The position numbers and the translations under genes are program-made. Positions 4,685 to 38,083 of a stretch of 55,836 nucleotides of DNA are shown here, piece after piece; the stretch's first letter is position 1; every line of letters starts with the position of its first letter. A model generated the notes under the pieces. That model was not told where the DNA came from. It did not search any database and worked only from the letters and a program-made list of their open reading frames with translations. The DNA is from Dehalococcoidia bacterium (lineage in GTDB: Bacteria > Chloroflexota > Dehalococcoidia > Dehalococcoidales > S120): NCBI GenBank assembly GCA_011192075.1, contig DUER01000144.1, positions 1 through 55,836 of the forward strand. Direction: 5' to 3'.

Positions 4685-7129
4685 TCAAACTAGACCCACC
4701 GGGTCAATGTCTACTGTCCAGCCCTGGGGAAAGGGTATCTGCGATAGAAAAGCAGAGAGCTCAGAGCCACGAAGTATGAGCTGCCACCGAAACCGACCCC
4801 TCAGTCTATGAACAAAAGCCGGGGCAGGACCAATTAGACTGAGGTCGGCTATTCCCTTTGAGTCTCTTTCCTCGATTAGAAGGCGCTTCATCCTTTCCGA
4901 CTCTCTCTGACAAAGAGCATCGTTAATGTGGCTATAAACAAGACTTGCCAGTCGGGTAAAGGGAGGGTTATGAAGCTGGCATCGGTAGGCAATCTCTCTA
5001 TCATAAAAAAGGGTATAGCCGTGCTTAGCTGCTGCCCGAATGGCATAATGCTCTGGAGAATAGGTCTGAATGATAACCTGCCCCCCTAAAATGCCGCGCC
5101 CAGCCCTCCCCGCCACCTGACTCAGGAGCTGAAAGGTCCTCTCCCCTGCCCGGAAGTCAGGCAGGTTTAAACTGGTATCAGCACTCACTACCCCAACCAG
5201 AGTAATTAGAGGTAAATCCAACCCCTTGGCAATCATTTGTGTGCCGATAAGAACATCAGCCTGGTGGGTACGGAACTTATCTAATATTTCCCGATGTGAA
5301 TACTTCCCTCTAGTAGCATCACTATCCCAACGCAGCAGCCTGGCTTGAGGAAAAGTATAACTGGCTTCTTGCTCCAGCTTCTGAGTGCCAACACCTAAAA
5401 ATTTTATTCGGCGACTCAAACACCGCGGGCAAACTTGAGGCACCGATATTCTGTAGTTACATTGATGGCAAACCAATATATCCTTATCAAAATGATGGGT
5501 AAGGGCAACCTCACAACGCTTACAACGGAAGATAAAACCACAGCTACGGCATTGAATAAAGCTAGCGGCTCCCCTTCGATTTAGAAATAGCATCACCTGC
5601 TCGCCACTGGCTACAGCTTTAGCCATAGCTTGAGACAGGGCACGACTAAAAAGGCTCCTATTCCCTGCCTTAAGCTCATCCCTTAAATCTACTACCTCAA
5701 CTTGGGGTAGGGGTGAAGCCTCATCGGGGACAACCCGCTCCGGAAGCTGAAGCAGGCAGTAGTCCCCTCTTCGAGCATGGTAAAAAGTCTCTACATCAGG
5801 AGTAGCACTACCCAGAATAATTACCGCCCCGGTTAACTCAGCCAACTTGATGGCTACATCGCAAGCGTGGTAGCGAGGCGATTTGTCCTGCTGTTTATAA
5901 GTCCATTCATGCTCCTCATCAATAACGATGAGACCCAAGTCAGGTTGAGGTGCGAAAATAGCACTCCGAGGGCCTATGACTACATCACATTCCCCGTTTC
6001 TAATTCGCTGCCACTCATCGAATTGCTCACCCAGGGAAAGCTTACTATGAAGCACAGCCACTTTATGGGGAAAGCGCGAGGCAAATCGCTCTATAATCTG
6101 AGTAGTAAGGGCAATCTCGGGAACCAAAACGATGCCCCGCTTACCCAGCCTCACTGCCTCAGCCAGAGCCTGGAGATAAATCTCTGTTTTGCCGCTTCCA
6201 GTAACCCCGTGGAGTAGAAAAACGGTCGGTGAAGCATGGCCCTCTGCCCCCCGGAGCAAGCTTGATTGAATAGACTCGAAGGCTGATTTTTGGGCAGCGG
6301 TAAGGGTTAACGGCTCTGATGGAGTTATACCTTGATAGGAAAGCGGTTCGCGTTTTACCTCAATATGCTGAGCTTTCACTAAACCCCTGCTGAGTAGAGC
6401 ATCAGTCACCGCTTTATCACAGTTAACCCTCTGCCTAGCTTCCACCCAGGATACCGGTTGGGACTGCTGAGTTAAGAAGTCGAGGAGAGCCGCCTGTTTG
6501 ACAGCTTTTTTTTCACGCAGCCTGGCTGCCTCTTGCTGAGCCTCACTCGTCTTAACTGCCAGGCTAAGGTAAAGCTCTTCCTTTGGCCTTACTTTAACCC
6601 TCTCCAGCTCATAACTCCTGACTACTAGACCTCGTCCTACCAGTTGTGAGACAACTGTCTGTGCCTTTTTCTTGCCTAATGCCTTCTCAAGCTCCCTGAG
6701 ACTAACTTTACCTTGTTTCCGAAGTAGCTCAAGGACATCCCTCTTCTCCTGTGTAAGAGAGGATATATCATGTTCATGAGCGGTTGAGAGACTAGAGATA
6801 AAGGTGATTACCTTTCGCTCAAATCCTGGTGGTAGCATTAAAGCCACAGCGTCAAAAAGGGGTGATAGATAATGCTCGCTTATCCAGCGAGCTAATAATA
6901 CATGGAATGGTGACAGCAGAGGACGGGGCTCAATAACACCAGCTATTTCTCTTGCTTCCTCCACAGAAGGGTAATGCTTTAGCTCTAAGACAATACCCTG
7001 GAGAAGCTTATCACCAAAGGGAACCCATACCGCTTGCCCCACCTCAATACTCAGACCGGAGGGAATAGCATAGCTAAATGCCCGACGCTGAGCTACTGGT
7101 GAATTAACACTAACCTCAGCATACCCCAC
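4685..7129 (-). CDS. priA: Primosomal protein N' (replication restart helicase PriA)
   Basis: 814 aa with Walker A GVTGSGKTE, the VIDEEHE box, and a Cys-rich zinc insert (CRSCG..CKRC..CHQC..CPRC). Confidence 0.9.
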   Translation of the reverse strand: MGYAEVSVNSPVAQRRAFSYAIPSGLSIEVGQAVWVPFGDKLLQGIVLELKHYPSVEEAREIAGVIEPRPLLSPFHVLLARWISEHYLSPLFDAVALMLPPGFERKVITFISSLSTAHEHDISSLTQEKRDVLELLRKQGKVSLRELEKALGKKKAQTVVSQLVGRGLVVRSYELERVKVRPKEELYLSLAVKTSEAQQEAARLREKKAVKQAALLDFLTQQSQPVSWVEARQRVNCDKAVTDALLSRGLVKAQHIEVKREPLSYQGITPSEPLTLTAAQKSAFESIQSSLLRGAEGHASPTVFLLHGVTGSGKTEIYLQALAEAVRLGKRGIVLVPEIALTTQIIERFASRFPHKVAVLHSKLSLGEQFDEWQRIRNGECDVVIGPRSAIFAPQPDLGLIVIDEEHEWTYKQQDKSPRYHACDVAIKLAELTGAVIILGSATPDVETFYHARRGDYCLLQLPERVVPDEASPLPQVEVVDLRDELKAGNRSLFSRALSQAMAKAVASGEQVMLFLNRRGAASFIQCRSCGFIFRCKRCEVALTHHFDKDILVCHQCNYRISVPQVCPRCLSRRIKFLGVGTQKLEQEASYTFPQARLLRWDSDATRGKYSHREILDKFRTHQADVLIGTQMIAKGLDLPLITLVGVVSADTSLNLPDFRAGERTFQLLSQVAGRAGRGILGGQVIIQTYSPEHYAIRAAAKHGYTLFYDREIAYRCQLHNPPFTRLASLVYSHINDALCQRESERMKRLLIEERDSKGIADLSLIGPAPAFVHRLRGRFRWQLILRGSELSAFLSQIPFPQGWTVDIDPVGLV

Positions 7130-31378: not shown

Positions 31379-32578
31379 GTGTCGTTAGATTTAACCAAGG
31401 TTGCTTCACAGGTTGGGAGTATGGTAGCCAGGCTCAAGGCTAGTGGTGAGGAAAGGCAGAAGCGTCTAAATTATGCCCTAGATGTTCTCCATAACCAGAC
31501 TGCCGACTTGGCTAATTTAATCAGGAAGATTGCCTCCAGCAAGACTACCTGGTTGGTAGCCGGCGTGGTAGACGGGCTTGACCAGCATTATGAAGCACCA
31601 GCCATCCCCACAGAATTCTCCGTCCTAGCTACCGATGGCTCTCATATTGATGTTAACCGACACTGGTCAACAAGGTGTTATCTGATCAACATAGGCTCAG
31701 TCATTCTTCACTACGGTGCTTACCCCAGTGCTACCCTTGATAGTTTCCCCCACCTCTATTTTGACGATGAAGACTTGGTTATTACGCCGGTCGGGGTTAG
31801 AGGCCGTGAGCAACTAATCGAAGGTGCTCTTCTTGGTATCAAGCGCGGCGTGGATGAGTGCCGCCAGTTGTCTGAACTGGCGGCGGAGCTGCTACCGGAT
31901 AGCTCAAATCTGGCCTTGCTCGATGGCTCGCTTATTCTGTGGAGTCTAGAAGCCTACCCTGAATTCGTTACCGAGGCATTGCTGAATAAGGGCTTTCTAA
32001 ACTACCTTGACCAAATGAGACAGCTTAACAATAGTAAGCAGCTTGCCCTTGCCAGCTATATCAGCTTTCCCCACAGTACCGATGTAGTTAATACGCTGCG
32101 GGTGGCTCTTTGCCCCCATGACCCGGCTGATTGCGACCGCTATTGCTCTACTAATGAGAAAAGAGACTGCGATACAGTGGCTGGCATTCGGGACCGTGAG
32201 CTATTCTCTAATATTTTGGCTCGGGGGGAAAGGTCAGCCATCTTTATCAGCGGGTCGTCTATAGTCCGAAAGCACTACGGAGTCCACCAGGTCTATTTTT
32301 TCTACCTCAGGGTCAATAATGAAGTAGCCAGGGTTGAGATTCCCCGCTGGGTGGCAGTGGACGAGGGCTTGCTCACTCTGGTTCATGCCCTAGTTTTAGA
32401 CCAGTGCCACCACGGGCAGGGATATCCCGTAGCCTTAAGTGAAGCCCATGAAAAGGCAGTGGTAACCGTAACTAATAGAGAAAACTTCTGGCAACTAGTA
32501 GAGTCATCCCTGACCAAAGAACATGTGCCCAGCTTTAGCTCAGCCAAGAGCCAGAGCAAGAGAACAAGGTGGGTTTAA
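31379..32578 (+). CDS. nurA: NurA-domain nuclease
   Basis: 399 aa with NurA-type motifs VLATDGSHI and LALLDGSLILWSL. The GTG start lies 13 nt after the sufB stop. Confidence 0.7.
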   Translation: MSLDLTKVASQVGSMVARLKASGEERQKRLNYALDVLHNQTADLANLIRKIASSKTTWLVAGVVDGLDQHYEAPAIPTEFSVLATDGSHIDVNRHWSTRCYLINIGSVILHYGAYPSATLDSFPHLYFDDEDLVITPVGVRGREQLIEGALLGIKRGVDECRQLSELAAELLPDSSNLALLDGSLILWSLEAYPEFVTEALLNKGFLNYLDQMRQLNNSKQLALASYISFPHSTDVVNTLRVALCPHDPADCDRYCSTNEKRDCDTVAGIRDRELFSNILARGERSAIFISGSSIVRKHYGVHQVYFFYLRVNNEVARVEIPRWVAVDEGLLTLVHALVLDQCHHGQGYPVALSEAHEKAVVTVTNRENFWQLVESSLTKEHVPSFSSAKSQSKRTRWV

Positions 32579-32605
32579 GATTATTAGTCTTTGGGAGGTT
32601 ATGAA

Positions 32606-32821
32606 ATGAGCAAAGACTTCATGCGTCTACCATTAAAGCCTTTCTTCGATTTTATGGATGATGAGAGGCAGCAGCTATTCAATCTTATGGAAACCTGCGT
32701 TAAAACAGGGACAAAGCTTATATTGGGGCAGACTAGGTGTTTCTTTTGCGGAACAGAACTTAGTGATGTTTCAGAAAGAAAGCAGGTAGGAATGGGTAAT
32801 CCTTTAATTAGGTGTTGTTAA
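32606..32821 (+). CDS. Small hypothetical protein (71 aa)
   Basis: GGGAGG lies 7 nt upstream of ATG 32606. The region is low GC. I recognise no family (..CFFCGTELSD..). Confidence 0.35.
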   Translation: MSKDFMRLPLKPFFDFMDDERQQLFNLMETCVKTGTKLILGQTRCFFCGTELSDVSERKQVGMGNPLIRCC

Positions 32822-32891
32822 AGATATATATACACTGGTGAAGATGAGGACAAAGAAGTTAAAATAGTTCATCAAAATTAGGAGGAAGCAC

Positions 32892-32963
32892 ATGGGAAGC
32901 AAGGGAAGAAAGAATGTGAAAAAGTCCAAGCAGCCAAAGGAGAAAAAGGGGAAGAACAAATAG
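32892..32963 (+). CDS. Possible 23-aa lysine-rich micropeptide
   Basis: MGSKGRKNVKKSKQPKEKKGKNK, with AGGAGG 7 nt upstream. Coding status is unproven. Confidence 0.25.
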   Translation: MGSKGRKNVKKSKQPKEKKGKNK

Positions 32964-32980
32964 GAAAGAAGACAGGCAAG

Positions 32981-33021
32981 TCTAAACTCTAAATAACAAT
33001 ATCTAAACTCTAAACAATATC
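32981..33021. repeat. Tandem direct repeat, two ~20-21 bp units
   Basis: TCTAAACTCTAAATAACAATA followed directly by TCTAAACTCTAAACAATATC. Confidence 0.6.
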
Positions 33022-33061
33022 AAATGACCAAAATCTAAAAGGGACTTTGTCATGGTAAATA

Positions 33062-33129
33062 TCATTGCGAGCAAAGCGAAGCATTCTCCCCATTAAAGAT
33101 TGCTTCGTCGCTGACACTCCTCGCAATGA
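33062..33129. repeat. Palindromic intergenic element
   Basis: TCATTGCGAG (33062-33071) pairs with CTCGCAATGA (33120-33129). Inner arms are AAGCGAAGCA and TGCTTCG. ATGACCAAAA occurs on both flanks (about 33034 and 33126). Confidence 0.6.
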
Positions 33130-33209
33130 CCAAAACTTTTAGGATTTGGAGTGGAGCGACTTTTTGATTTGATTCTTGTTTGAGTTCACTCCAAGCGGGG
33201 AGGTATGAA

Positions 33210-33245
33210 GTGCAAAGAGCGGGCGAGGTTATTGAAGCCAACTGA
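33210..33245 (+). pseudogene. Relic start of the HAS-barrel gene
   Basis: GGGGAGG SD, then GTG CAA AGA GCG GGC GAG GTT ATT GAA GCC AAC TGA (VQRAGEVIEAN*). Compare ATG CAG AGA GTG GGT GAG GTT ATT GAG GCC at 33794 (MQRVGEVIEA). By my hand alignment, 28 of 33 nt are identical. Confidence 0.5.
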
Positions 33246-33301
33246 TATAAGATGATAGACTTCTTTAGTAGTGATATTATGAAGCTAGTGGAGGTGAAAG
33301 T

Positions 33302-33547
33302 ATGAAGGAGATACTTTTAGCGATTCATATAGAAGCATTGCCTGAGGATGGATTTCTAGCCACCAGCGAGGAGTTACCCAGTCTGGTGACTCAAGGGCGG
33401 ACGGCTGCTGAGGCCGTAGAGATTGCGCAGGATGTAGCCTGCAAGCTCATCCAGTCTTATTATAAGCATGGTGATGAGCTACCGCCTGCATTGCGGGCTA
33501 CTACTCCGGCAAGTGGTGATGTCCGCATCCCGGTGAGTATATCCTGA
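33302..33547 (+). CDS. hicB: HicB-family antitoxin
   Basis: 81 aa. IEALPEDGFLATSEELPSLVTQGRTAAEAVEIAQDV is the typical HicB/UPF0150 fold sequence. An SD (GGAGGTG) is present. Confidence 0.8.
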   Translation: MKEILLAIHIEALPEDGFLATSEELPSLVTQGRTAAEAVEIAQDVACKLIQSYYKHGDELPPALRATTPASGDVRIPVSIS

Positions 33548-33767
33548 TGGGAAGGCTGGCTGGCTTCAGCGCTGATGAGGTAATCCGCAAGTTGAGGCGA
33601 GTTGGTTTTGTCTTTGACCGCTAGGCGAAGGGAAGCCATGAAATATGGTGGAATCCCTAAACTCGTGCCCGCACTACTGTGCCTCACCATCCTGGAGAGC
33701 TTCCCGAGGGGACACTGCGTGCTTGAGTCAAGCCAGGCTCAGTATAGATGAATTTCTGAAGCTTTGA
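33547..33767 (+). pseudogene. hicA: HicA-family toxin, inactivated
   Basis: ATGA overlap with hicB. It reads MGRLAGFSADEVIRKLRRVGFVFDR*AKGSHEIWWNP*TRARTTVPHHPGELPEGTLRA, then needs a frameshift to reach ..LSQARLSIDEFLKL*. That is two in-frame stops plus one frameshift. Confidence 0.7.
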
Positions 33768-33793
33768 GAGGTTCTATGGAAGAGAGTATGCAA

Positions 33794-34378
33794 ATGCAGA
33801 GAGTGGGTGAGGTTATTGAGGCCAGCACCACTGAATTTGTCGCCCAGTGCTATGAACTTTACCAGTCACCTCCTTTAGGTAGCCTGGTAAAGACCAGGGA
33901 TTTGCTGGTGGAGTTATATGGCATAGTCTATAATACCACTACCACTAGCCTTGAGCCTGGGCGGCGCCCCATTGCCCGGGGTAAGGATGAGGCTAGTGAG
34001 GAAGAAATCTACCGCTCTAGCCCTCAACTTCTGGAGCTGCTACGTAGCGAATCCAGTGCTCTAGTGGTCGGTCATAATCAGGGTGATAAATTGCATCACT
34101 ATCTGCCACCTAAACCAGCCCGAATACATGGTTTTGTCTACCTGTGCCCTTCTGAGGAGGTAAAGGAGTTTAGCCAGTCCTTTAATTTCCTCACTATACT
34201 GATTAACACTCACCTGCCCGTCTCCCAAGATGAGCTTATTGCCGCCTGTTTGCGTCAGATGAGCCAGGCATATGAAGACCGCTATGCCTTTTTGGTGGCT
34301 GCGGGCAAGGAGTTAGCCGTATTACTTGGTGGTGAATTTAACCAACTCAAAGCTATTCTGGAGAGGATTAGACAGTGA
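33794..34378 (+). CDS. Hypothetical protein with HerA HAS-barrel-like N-terminus
   Basis: 194 aa from ATG 33794 (the track start is 33764). RVGEVIEASTTEFVAQ..LGSLVKT..LYGIVYN parallels the HerA N-terminal barrel. Its stop overlaps the herA GTG (GTGA). Confidence 0.6.
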   Translation: MQRVGEVIEASTTEFVAQCYELYQSPPLGSLVKTRDLLVELYGIVYNTTTTSLEPGRRPIARGKDEASEEEIYRSSPQLLELLRSESSALVVGHNQGDKLHHYLPPKPARIHGFVYLCPSEEVKEFSQSFNFLTILINTHLPVSQDELIAACLRQMSQAYEDRYAFLVAAGKELAVLLGGEFNQLKAILERIRQ

Positions 34379-35988
34379 CCCAAGAAAACAGTCAAAGACT
34401 AGGCATTGTCGTCTCCGGCTCATTAAATAAGGGGGTGGAAGTCAGGCTGGATAGCTCAGCCTCAGTTGAGGATATGGCGGTGGGGCGCTACGTAACTATT
34501 GAGGGGCAAAAGCAACGTTTCTTCGGCATGATAACCGATGTCAGTCTAGGCGTGATAGACCAGAAACTTACCCTTACTCCGCCTGATGTTTCTGACTCGT
34601 TTACAACCGAGGTATTAGCTGGAACCAGCACCTACGGAATGCTCCATGTCTCTCCTTACCTCACTATCGCTGGCGATGTTACCAGCTTAATTGAGGGACC
34701 ACAGCCTGTTAAGACAGTGCCCAGCCACTTCTCCACAGCAAATCTAGCTTCAGACCAAGACATCGAGCTAGTCTTTGGTAAAGAAGATAAAGAAAGGTTC
34801 TGGATTGGCAATCCCCTCGATATGGAGACCAAGGTCTGTCTTAACCTGCAAGAGTTTGTTAAGCGTTCCAACGGCATCTTTGGCAAGAGCGGTACTGGCA
34901 AGACCTTTCTCACCAGGATTCTGCTTATTGGCCTGCTCCAGAAGAGCCAAGCAGTAAACTTAATCTTTGATATGCATAATGAATACGGTTGGGCAGGGAC
35001 TAGAGAGGGGGGGGCACCAGTTAAGGCATTAAAACAGCTCTTTCCATCAAATGTAGCCGTATTTACTCTTGACGAAGAGAACTCAAGGCGCCGGGGGGTA
35101 AGCACCGACTTTGTGGTCAGGATAGGCTATGATGAGATTGAGCCTGAGGATATAGTATTGCTCCGCCAGACTCTGAATCTTACCGAACTTGCTGTTGAAG
35201 CAGTACATCAACTATTCAGAAAATTTGGTAAAAACTGGCTACAGAGTACCCTAGCCCTAAAAGATACCGAAGAATTACCGGAGGGTCTAAACATACATGA
35301 GAGCACCCTTAATAACCTACAGAGGGGGCTGGCGACTATCAGACGACTTCCTTTCATAGAGACTCATGCTCCAACCAATACTGTAGGAAGTATTCTCAAC
35401 CATCTTGACCGAGGTATAAATGTCGTTCTGGAGTTTGGCAGGTACAGAGATATCACATCTTATATCCTGGTAGCCAATATGCTCACCCGCCGTATCTACG
35501 CCCAATACCAGGAGAGGGTGGAAAAGGCAATGGGTGAAAATACTATCAAGCCCCGTCCCTTGGTAATAACTATTGAGGAAGCACATAAGTTCCTTAATCC
35601 CCAAGTTGCTAACCAGACCATATTTGGTACCATTGCCCGTGAGATGCGTAAATATAATGTTACCTTGCTGGTAATCGACCAGCGACCCAGTGGTATTGAT
35701 GATGAGGTTATGTCTCAAATCGGGACTAAGATAACTTGCCTACTGGACAATGAGCGAGATATTGATAGTGTCTTAGCTGGCACATCAGATAAGGGCGAGC
35801 TCAAATCGGTGTTAGCCAAACTGGCTTCCAAACAGCAAGCACTCATCTTCGGCCATGCTGTGCCTATGCCGATGGTAATCAGGACTCGAGAGTATGGTTC
35901 CCCCGAATCTTACCGGGATTTTATCTCTAGAGGGGAAGCTGAGATTAACAAGCAGGCAGAGAAGGACATAGAGGAGTTGTGGGAATAG
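34375..35988 (+). CDS. herA: HerA/FtsK-superfamily ATPase (DUF87-type)
   Basis: 537 aa. N-terminal barrel (RLGIVVSGSLNKGVEVRL..VGRYVTIE..FFGMITDV), Walker A FGKSGTGKTF, Walker B LVITIEEAHKF. Confidence 0.8.
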   Translation: MTQENSQRLGIVVSGSLNKGVEVRLDSSASVEDMAVGRYVTIEGQKQRFFGMITDVSLGVIDQKLTLTPPDVSDSFTTEVLAGTSTYGMLHVSPYLTIAGDVTSLIEGPQPVKTVPSHFSTANLASDQDIELVFGKEDKERFWIGNPLDMETKVCLNLQEFVKRSNGIFGKSGTGKTFLTRILLIGLLQKSQAVNLIFDMHNEYGWAGTREGGAPVKALKQLFPSNVAVFTLDEENSRRRGVSTDFVVRIGYDEIEPEDIVLLRQTLNLTELAVEAVHQLFRKFGKNWLQSTLALKDTEELPEGLNIHESTLNNLQRGLATIRRLPFIETHAPTNTVGSILNHLDRGINVVLEFGRYRDITSYILVANMLTRRIYAQYQERVEKAMGENTIKPRPLVITIEEAHKFLNPQVANQTIFGTIAREMRKYNVTLLVIDQRPSGIDDEVMSQIGTKITCLLDNERDIDSVLAGTSDKGELKSVLAKLASKQQALIFGHAVPMPMVIRTREYGSPESYRDFISRGEAEINKQAEKDIEELWE

Positions 35989-37087: not shown

Positions 37088-38083
37088 TCAATATTCTTTA
37101 TACCACTTTCCCGATGTGTAGGCTAGCTCGTGGGCAGCTAGCCCAAGCTTCTGGTACCACGGTACAGCGTATCTGCTAGCTATCTCAGTCAGTCTCTTTA
37201 ACCTATCTGCCCCCACTGTTGATAGATATTGAACCCTTTCTCGCTCATCATCAATATACATTGCCTCTTGCCAGATAGCACGACCACCTAGAAAACCTGA
37301 GACTCCAGCCTGGCAGGCGATTTCTACCTCCTGGTAAAAAAGTCCAAAGTCCACCCCAGCACTCAGGATGACCCACGGAACCTGGGACGACATATCTAAC
37401 TGGTGACAGAGGTTGATGAGCTCAGCCTTGTCCCACTTATAGCGCAGGTTAGCGGGAAACTCAGCCTTTGGCACATCTATGAATAAAGCGGTGATATCTT
37501 GAGCAGATTTAATCACCAGTTGCTCTTTCAGGACAGCGAACTCCGCTGGATTATTAATCTCGCTACCTATAGGATAGCTCTTTGGTTCTACCAGGAAGGG
37601 AAGGTCATATTTTATACAGTCACTGGCTACCATATTAACTGTGTTTAACTGCTGGCTTGCCGGCTCACTCAAATCTGGTCGATAGTAGACCAAAATCTTC
37701 ACTGCCGAGGCACCCATTCGCTTAATCTTCTCCACATTCTACCCATCAAGCAGCTTAGTTAGGCGGTATTCTTTTCCGCCACCATAGCTAGTGGCTTCCA
37801 GACTAATCAGGAGCCCGGTATCACTAGGTAAAGCACCGTGACTAATGCATTGAGCAGCACTAAATATCGGGTCAATTAGAACGGCACTGGCATATTTAGC
37901 CAGGGCAGAGCACAGCTCCAGCTTGCACTCAACCATTTCGTCACAGTTGACCTCTCCTGGGTGCTCTTCATCAATCATACTACGTAAGGAACCGCGGTGG
38001 TCCATAGCACACATAGCAAAGATGCCATCTGGATTGGCAATCTGTTGTAGCCCTCTTATTTTACCAATGCTTAACCTCTTCAT
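37088..38083 (-). pseudogene. LacD-family class I tagatose/fructose-bisphosphate aldolase interrupted by one in-frame TAG
   Basis: The two track ORFs (37739-38083 and 37088-37735) are in the same frame, giving ..LTKLLDG*NVEKIKRMGASAVKILVYY. As I recall, family members have Trp (TGG) where the TAG at 37739-37741 sits. Confidence 0.7.

Follow-up and report, generated by a model that had tools for sequence, protein, structure and literature searches.

What does a protein made of a HAS barrel and a small helical domain, without an ATPase of its own, do directly upstream of the gene for the HerA ATPase? The question is raised by a locus on contig DUER01000144.1 (assembly GCA_011192075.1) of a Dehalococcoidia bacterium; the whole analysed stretch of 55,836 nucleotides (nt) is referred to as the window. 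On its plus strand the locus encodes a NurA-domain nuclease (nurA, 31379-32578), a protein of 200 amino acids (aa) that we call the barrel protein (33776-34378) and a HerA-type ATPase (herA, 34375-35988). We consider it probable that these genes specify a bacterial HerA-NurA machine that resects DNA ends in the repair of double-strand breaks, with the barrel protein as third dedicated subunit. The partnership of the barrel protein with HerA-NurA is well supported, whereas architecture and stoichiometry of such a complex are guesses. In our view, an established machine is here extended by a component that is widely conserved but has not been described.

The barrel protein and its coupling to herA

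The two outer genes of the locus are what an earlier note, made from the sequence alone, had taken them for, i.e. a NurA-domain open reading frame (ORF) and a HerA ATPase ORF on a common strand. NurA (399 aa) matches Pfam PF09376 with an expectation value (E) of 7e-32 and 111 bits (cut-off 21), covering profile positions 2-254 of 254, and carries the motifs ATDGSH, LLDGSL and YPVALSEAH. A phmmer search found no match to any NurA in the PDB, and by its sequence the protein is very divergent from the solved NurA proteins. According to Pfam and PDB matches, HerA (537 aa) is composed of a HAS barrel (residues 10-102, E=7e-11) and a RecA-like ATPase with a helical insert (DUF87/HerA central domain, residues 144-374, E=3e-30), and contains the motifs GKSGTGKT and ITIEEAH. 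Nine PDB sequences match it at E<=0.001, with HerA chains at E=2e-21 to 7e-6; the best match is 8wiv, HerA from the SIR2/HerA complex, and 4d2i is found at E=5e-16. No Deinococcus HerA chain is among these nine phmmer matches, and as the Deinococcus sequence does not reach the threshold, the HerA of the window is assigned to a separate bacterial clade.

The frame between nurA and herA, given as 194-204 aa in the earlier note, extends at its maximum to 204 aa (33764-34378) and includes ATG codons at 33776 and 33794 as alternative starts. A database protein that is 100% identical to it (P0001) is 200 aa long; thus, the barrel gene likely starts at ATG 33776, at a length within the range noted before. 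Its stop codon (TGA, 34376-34378) overlaps the GTG start of herA at 34375 by 4 nt (GTGA), just as described earlier. This GTG is the sole in-frame start 5' of HerA's own barrel, and a GGAGAGG sequence is located 10-16 nt 5' of it. A scan for promoters and terminators was uninformative (5 promoter-like sites vs 5.7 expected; no terminators). The three genes are not contiguous, as 1.2 kb (32579-33775) separate nurA from the barrel gene and 1.8 kb separate nurA from herA. Thus, the proposal of a three-part module holds for the gene order, but not in the sense of an uninterrupted gene cluster.

The barrel gene is a real gene under constraint as strong as that on herA. Computed against 13 Dehalococcoidales orthologues, wherever the synonymous rate (dS) was not saturated, the ratio of nonsynonymous to synonymous substitution rates (dN/dS) is 0.06-0.14 for the barrel gene vs 0.05-0.09 for herA. 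A word-indexed search returned 3,729 homologues of the barrel protein, and HMMER, run exhaustively on representatives at 50% identity, returned 780 clusters at E<=0.001; full-length members are nearly all 190-210 aa long. A second homologue search with the barrel-family profile added little taxonomic breadth. Where the homologues are named by their source at all they are called 'hypothetical protein'. The barrel protein as a single sequence has no match in NCBIfam, in the PADLOC models or in the PDB sequence set, and a 78-sequence profile gave nothing meaningful there. The corresponding 78-sequence alignment reveals the conserved signatures GEVIExST, PGRRPxARG, PQLxxLLRT and LPPxPxRxH as well as E12, T56, R63, P83 and T91 (numbered as in the 200-aa protein), which are nearly invariant, and the family is mildly acidic with a median isoelectric point (pI) of 5.9.

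The barrel part of the protein folds like the N-terminal domain of HerA. Its AlphaFold2 model, calculated from the 78-sequence alignment, has a mean predicted local distance difference test (pLDDT) score of 96.1 and a predicted template modelling (pTM) score of 0.90, and consists of a β-barrel with a short helical insert (residues 9-123) that is followed by five helices (residues 126-199). The 50 best Foldseek matches of this model in the PDB are all HerA chains, aligned via their N-terminal HAS barrel (E 8e-7 to 2e-4, around 130 aligned columns, probability 1.00); they include the Thermococcus kodakarensis HerA-NurA complex, Saccharolobus solfataricus HerA, DUF4297-HerA, SIR2-HerA, Deinococcus radiodurans HerA and TdpA. 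At the sequence level the window protein reaches 13.7 bits against the Pfam HAS-barrel family PF09378, i.e. it remains below the cut-off of 25.2, whereas 34 of the 78 family members match PF09378 at E<=0.1 (best E=2e-9) and several database relatives carry a precomputed PF09378 match. Neither a P-loop nor any ATPase or nucleotide-binding domain was found in the barrel protein, so that its earlier description as a HAS barrel without ATPase is borne out.

The notion that it is a barrel-only copy of the HerA barrel has to be amended, however. The barrel is there, but it is accompanied by the C-terminal five-helix domain of 75 residues, which appears to be private to the family: modelled alone, the C-terminal 79 residues give a confident structure (pLDDT 93.8, pTM 0.81), for which Foldseek detects no structural relative in the PDB (best E=2.9). 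A viral fold library yielded no match to the barrel protein at E<=0.001. Moreover, if the profiles of the barrel family and of the family of the cognate HerA are aligned (hhalign), they are in register over the whole barrel (residues 2-143 vs 8-151 of HerA), but the match is weak (E=0.029, 13% identity). The barrel protein is therefore regarded as an ancient paralogue of the HerA N-domain, and a recent duplication of the cognate HerA barrel is ruled out by the same values.

One could also imagine that herA was once duplicated and that the ORF is what remains of a decaying copy, or that it is entirely spurious, and the fold that it has in common with the first domain of HerA would fit the former. 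A dN/dS of about 0.1, the constant length of around 200 aa throughout 780 diverged clusters, confident models of both domains and motifs that are the family's own, such as PGRRPxARG and LPPxPxRxH, refute this reading, which we consider to have next to no probability.

Gene order among close and distant relatives

The neighbourhood of the barrel gene was compared in 50 loci of close relatives, one genome per species, all but one of which are labelled Dehalococcoidia/Dehalococcoidales or were binned with them; single loci are denoted by L numbers. In 47 of these loci herA is located 3' of the barrel gene, and of the other three two end before herA and one is an orphan. The barrel-herA overlap amounts to exactly 4 nt in 37 of the 47 loci and to 1, 8 or 14 nt in four, and a gap of 20-107 nt is present in three. 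As the 4-nt overlap is repeated in 37 of 47 related loci it is not a product of chance, and, judged by this arrangement, the barrel gene appears to be translationally coupled to herA, in line with the earlier note.

The association with nurA is looser. nurA can be found up to 3.1 kb 5' of the barrel gene in 32 loci; L010, L035 and L048 are the only exceptions among the loci whose upstream sequence extends over about 3 kb or more. No nurA is present within 7 kb upstream of the barrel gene in L010 and L035. In L048, a complete 1.03-Mb chromosome (CP070810.1), nothing but the 53 C-terminal residues of NurA can be detected 5' of the barrel gene (6334-6492). In some genomes, nurA may have been interrupted or moved elsewhere although the barrel-herA pair is retained.

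Distant family members, which were looked up one by one, exhibit 33-43% identity to the barrel protein of the window. The sample is small, comprising nine lineages, and seven of these contain the triad. The order nurA-barrel-herA is found in SAR202 (L053/L054), in Armatimonadota (L055), on a high-G+C metagenome contig (L058) and on a marine TARA contig (L062), and in two further lineages (L059/L060 and L063) it is extended to nurA-barrel-herA-sbcD/mre11-sbcC/rad50. In the latter two the genes overlap or sit no more than about 100 nt apart, SbcD matches TIGR00619 with 130-143 bits vs a cut-off of 78, and the SbcC/Rad50 models match as well. The barrel gene alone separates nurA from herA in L053, L058, L059 and L063, and overlap-type coupling of the barrel gene to herA also occurs in L055, L053 and L063. 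All this is maintained across a G+C content of 32-68% and at identities to the window proteins of 34-37% for NurA, 35-43% for the barrel protein and 43-51% for HerA. The earlier note had raised conservation of the triad across Chloroflexota as a question; the triad is conserved there and also beyond the phylum, e.g. in Armatimonadota.

Two natural fusions were considered and rejected as evidence for an interaction. P0200 (372 aa) joins the C-terminus of NurA to the barrel protein via a linker that looks out of frame, and is probably a frameshift read-through; P0197 (271 aa), which combines the barrel protein with a fragment of a periplasmic binding protein, is probably an assembly chimera.

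Several observations weigh against a dedicated third subunit. Stretches of inserted DNA between 0.86 and 6.4 kb separate the barrel gene from herA in three of the 47 close loci (L034 and L038 with around 0.87 kb, L036 with 6.4 kb), and on the 1.87-Mb Dehalococcoidia contig L061, the seventh of the distant triads, a gene for a LysR-family regulator intervenes (nurA-barrel-lysR-herA). As other DNA intervenes in L034, L036, L038 and L061, the coupling to herA is usual, not obligatory. In the window, a reading of the ORFs that flank the locus on both sides to a distance of about 5 kb, and of ten larger ORFs elsewhere, showed neither sbcD/mre11 nor sbcC/rad50. HerA retains a complete HAS barrel of its own, i.e. 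the second barrel fills no gap in HerA, and the mild acidity of the barrel family argues against a simple DNA-binding clamp. Finally, in the two remaining distant lineages, L051 (Obscuribacterales) and L056/L057, there is no nurA or herA in around 6-7 kb upstream of the barrel gene (downstream sequence of L051 extends over only about 0.8 kb), suggesting that the barrel protein can be encoded apart from nurA and herA, or may even act independently of them. These orphan genes (L051, 6983-7612; L056, 6001-6585; L057, 4517-5101) encode proteins of 34-36% identity. In L051 the barrel gene adjoins genes for ABC permeases and a kinase/TPR protein, and in L056/L057 it adjoins an AP_endonuc_2-family gene, nusB and folD.

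The orphans are the observation on which one might base the idea that the barrel protein serves a separate function, e.g. as partner of another ring ATPase or as general scaffold, and that its adjacency to herA is simply inherited gene order. Yet neither the 4-nt overlap nor the constant neighbourhood would be expected to survive as mere inherited order while identity drops from 87% to 35% and G+C ranges over 32-68%, and the triad is kept in seven of the nine distant lineages sampled. We thus regard an independent role as very improbable, and return to the barrel protein as partner of HerA and NurA.

Core-chromosome context and the spacer downstream of nurA

HerA-type ATPases also operate in anti-phage systems, such as SIR2-HerA and DUF4297-HerA, and the locus might by analogy be a defence system with NurA as effector nuclease and the barrel protein as sensor or adaptor. 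The best NCBIfam/PADLOC matches of the window's HerA do include 'anti-phage HerA' models, its best PDB sequence match stems from a SIR2/HerA complex, as mentioned above, and toxin-antitoxin genes are located in the adjoining spacer as well as near L058, L059 and L061. However, the anti-phage model NF042943 scores far under its cut-off (84.6 vs 800 bits) and no better than the repair-HerA models, neither the barrel protein nor NurA has a match in NCBIfam or PADLOC, and Pfam and PADLOC reveal no SIR2, DUF4297 or TdpB effector beside herA.

The surroundings point in the same direction, as the locus is situated in a core-chromosome context. The window encodes PriA, MraW, FtsA, FtsZ, NrdR, ribonucleotide reductase, a PolA-like ORF of 905 aa and GltX. 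SufC- and SufD-like genes are located directly 5' of nurA and the PfkB gene 3' of herA, these flanks recur in relatives, and SelB-nurA synteny recurs in SAR202 and Dehalococcoidia, and housekeeping synteny is kept across a whole class. In contrast to what would be expected for a defence system, tblastn against 50,697 phage and 72,556 plasmid records detected no copy, and two lineages link the triad to sbcD/mre11-sbcC/rad50. The question of core versus defence-island context, posed in the earlier note, is thus answered in favour of the core chromosome; the evidence favours repair over defence, and a role in anti-phage immunity is rated as quite improbable.

The spacer between nurA and the barrel gene (32579-33775) is variable and is not regarded as part of the machine; it rather constitutes an insertion hotspot in Dehalococcoidales. 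Its length ranges from 117 nt to 3.1 kb in this order and from 0 to 3.1 kb across all loci, and in L053, L058, L059 and L063 it is absent or at most 43 nt long. In the window the spacer carries a toxin-antitoxin cassette as cargo. The beginning of the barrel gene is present a second time as a 38-nt duplicate (33203-33240, plus strand; translation VQRAGEVIEAN*), which is 85% identical to 33786-33824 and precedes this hicBA cassette; both copies align to the barrel-gene start of other loci. The cassette itself comprises an intact hicB-like antitoxin gene (33302-33547, plus strand, 81 aa) and a hicA-like toxin pseudogene (33547-33767, plus strand) with two premature stops (CAG>TAG and CAA>TAA) and a 4-nt deletion, lesions that were called against the intact 74-aa copies of L007 and L002. 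The HicB label derives from the pairing with hicA and from reading of the sequence, with no Pfam match; copies with 84-89% identity occupy the same position in L002, L007 and L016. The duplicated layout around hicBA is shared with L002 and L016.

In other Dehalococcoidales loci the spacer cargo comprises a lipoprotein-like family (nine loci), flavodoxin-like (five loci) and LOG/TIGR00730-like genes (four loci), and furthermore hicBA, zinc-ribbon proteins, nitroreductase-like and GNAT-like genes, all these labels being our reading of the sequences. The spacer of the window has no Rfam match. Directly 3' of nurA it contains a putative gene, an ORF of 76 aa (32591-32821) with a CFFCG motif that ends with CC and has no Pfam or NCBIfam match. 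A conserved intergenic element of around 170 nt (32875-33043) follows, which contains a lysine-rich mini-ORF of 22 codons (MGSKGRKNVKKSKQPKEKKGKNK, 32893-32961) and subsequent short 'tctaaactctaaa' repeats. This element recurs with 67-80% identity in the spacers of L007, L010, L015, L016 (twice), L018 and L048, and a peptide similar to that of the mini-ORF ends an ORF of 266 aa in L028. Next to the element, at 33062-33130, lies an imperfect inverted repeat (cattgcgagcaaagcgaagc...gcttcgtcgctgacactcctcgcaatgac) with the pseudo-peptide 'LRFARND' in its minus-strand translation; a related copy in opposite orientation is present in L043, and the repeat looks like a small dispersed repeat.

Downstream of the locus, a minus-strand frame of 332 codons (37088-38083) is interrupted by one in-frame TAG (LLDG*NVEKIKRMGA) into parts of 114 aa and 215 aa. 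It looks like one aldolase-type gene beside pfkB, and would be either a pseudogene or the result of a sequencing error. Together with the stop codons in hicA, this TAG suggests that there is some gene decay, or that the assembly contains G>A / C>T errors.

A proposed third subunit of the HerA-NurA machine

In archaea, HerA-NurA is usually encoded together with Mre11-Rad50. The locus of the window resembles the archaeal HerA-NurA of Saccharolobus solfataricus and Thermococcus kodakarensis (PDB 4d2i, 9x1l/9x1m) in that a HerA composed of HAS barrel, RecA-like ATPase and helical insert and a NurA nuclease are encoded in one cluster, and the sbcD/mre11 and sbcC/rad50 genes directly downstream in two relatives of the window, L059/L060 and L063, further recall the archaeal break-repair operon. 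The window sequences are distant from the archaeal ones, however, the hosts are mesophilic bacteria, and an extra protein of 200 aa, consisting of barrel and helical domain, is encoded between nurA and herA. Two structural papers on HerA-NurA describe a HerA6-NurA2 assembly and no third subunit (PMC9960219, PMC12977600). The NurA-HerA of Deinococcus radiodurans and Thermus (PDB 7f6d, 7wrw; PMC9960219) is likewise encoded in a bacterial nurA-herA operon implicated in end resection, but this operon has two genes, and NurA docks on the HAS-barrel ring with no third subunit described (PMC9960219).

The anti-phage systems SIR2-HerA (Nezha), DUF4297-HerA and TdpAB are built on the same principle, as a hexameric HerA-family ATPase binds a partner effector via its HAS-barrel face, and the barrel protein finds some of its best structural matches in the N-domains of anti-phage HerA proteins; here, in contrast, the partner is NurA and the context is the core chromosome. 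The same type of barrel also forms the N-terminal crown of F1/V1 ATP synthase (the 'AS' of the HAS barrel), where it constitutes a collar above the motor domains. The HAS barrel was reportedly defined by Iyer et al. in 2004. To our knowledge, the barrel of F1/V1 ATP synthase is always fused to the ATPase domain, whereas the barrel described here is free-standing and has a helical domain of its own.

A version of HerA-NurA with an extra barrel subunit was not recognised as described in the earlier note, and the present analysis agrees: in the full-text literature, with subscription-only papers outside the coverage, no paper on a stand-alone HAS-barrel protein or on NurA-HerA in Chloroflexota was found, and among the family resources only the weak Pfam HAS-barrel match mentioned above points to the fold, with nothing in NCBIfam and PADLOC.

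As the conserved barrel gene is located directly before herA, the NurA-HerA machine probably has a third subunit in Dehalococcoidia and their relatives. How could this subunit be integrated? In the solved HerA6-NurA2 complex six HAS barrels make up one face of the ring, and the NurA dimer binds there (PMC12977600, PMC9960219). Double-stranded DNA enters HerA at the opposite face, which is formed by the helix bundle, and ATP hydrolysis drives the DNA toward NurA (PMC12977600, PMC9960219). Based on this architecture we speculate that the barrel protein would be made in step with HerA and would join the complex via barrel-type contacts as stoichiometric accessory subunit. Most likely it would form an extra ring or collar, either coaxial with the HerA channel or at the HAS face, and its private helical domain might serve as the surface on which NurA, and also SbcCD/Mre11-Rad50 in lineages that have it there, docks or is gated. 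In this way the barrel protein could control the timing with which DNA reaches the nuclease.

The same structural kinship permits an opposite role, namely that of a regulatory decoy or safety cap. A free barrel that mimics the NurA-docking HAS face might hold NurA inactive, or cap HerA, until a DNA end has been engaged, and would then be a negative regulator instead of a structural part. The barrel protein has the fold of the very domain of HerA on which NurA docks, the acidity of the family (pI around 5.9) resembles the negative face of HerA that binds the positive face of NurA in Deinococcus (PMC9960219), and in the compact operons L059, L063 and L058 nurA overlaps or abuts the barrel gene. 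However, one would expect the gene for a NurA decoy to remain beside nurA, whereas in Dehalococcoidales the coupling is tight with herA and nurA may be up to 3 kb away. We therefore consider a decoy or cap unlikely, albeit the strongest of the rival readings, and favour a structural role of the barrel protein in the HerA-NurA machine.

In its most general form our proposal reads that Chloroflexota (Dehalococcoidia, SAR202), Armatimonadota and some other bacteria use a resection machine of three proteins, NurA, HAS-barrel protein and HerA, or of five if SbcCD/Mre11-Rad50 is included, and that the barrel paralogue is an obligatory subunit, inserted as a second ring or as an adaptor tier where the translocase meets the nucleases that it works with. 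For this extended version we see the chances as evenly balanced. If it is true, the barrel protein would be a previously unrecognised obligatory subunit and represent a new way to build or gate a complex of ring translocase and nuclease. Even in the archaeal complex the interdependence of HerA and NurA and the handover of DNA from motor to nuclease are still being worked out (PMC12977600).

If the barrel protein is merely a loose neighbour of herA, the finding is reduced to an annotation note. Otherwise, a large environmental group, including the organohalide-respiring Dehalococcoidia and the abundant marine SAR202, keeps an extra, strongly constrained subunit whose building block is precisely the domain by which HerA and NurA make contact. 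Thus, provided that the barrel protein is part of the complex, it would constitute a natural experiment on how this interface is constructed and controlled, and several thousand proteins now called 'hypothetical' would be named and assigned a function.

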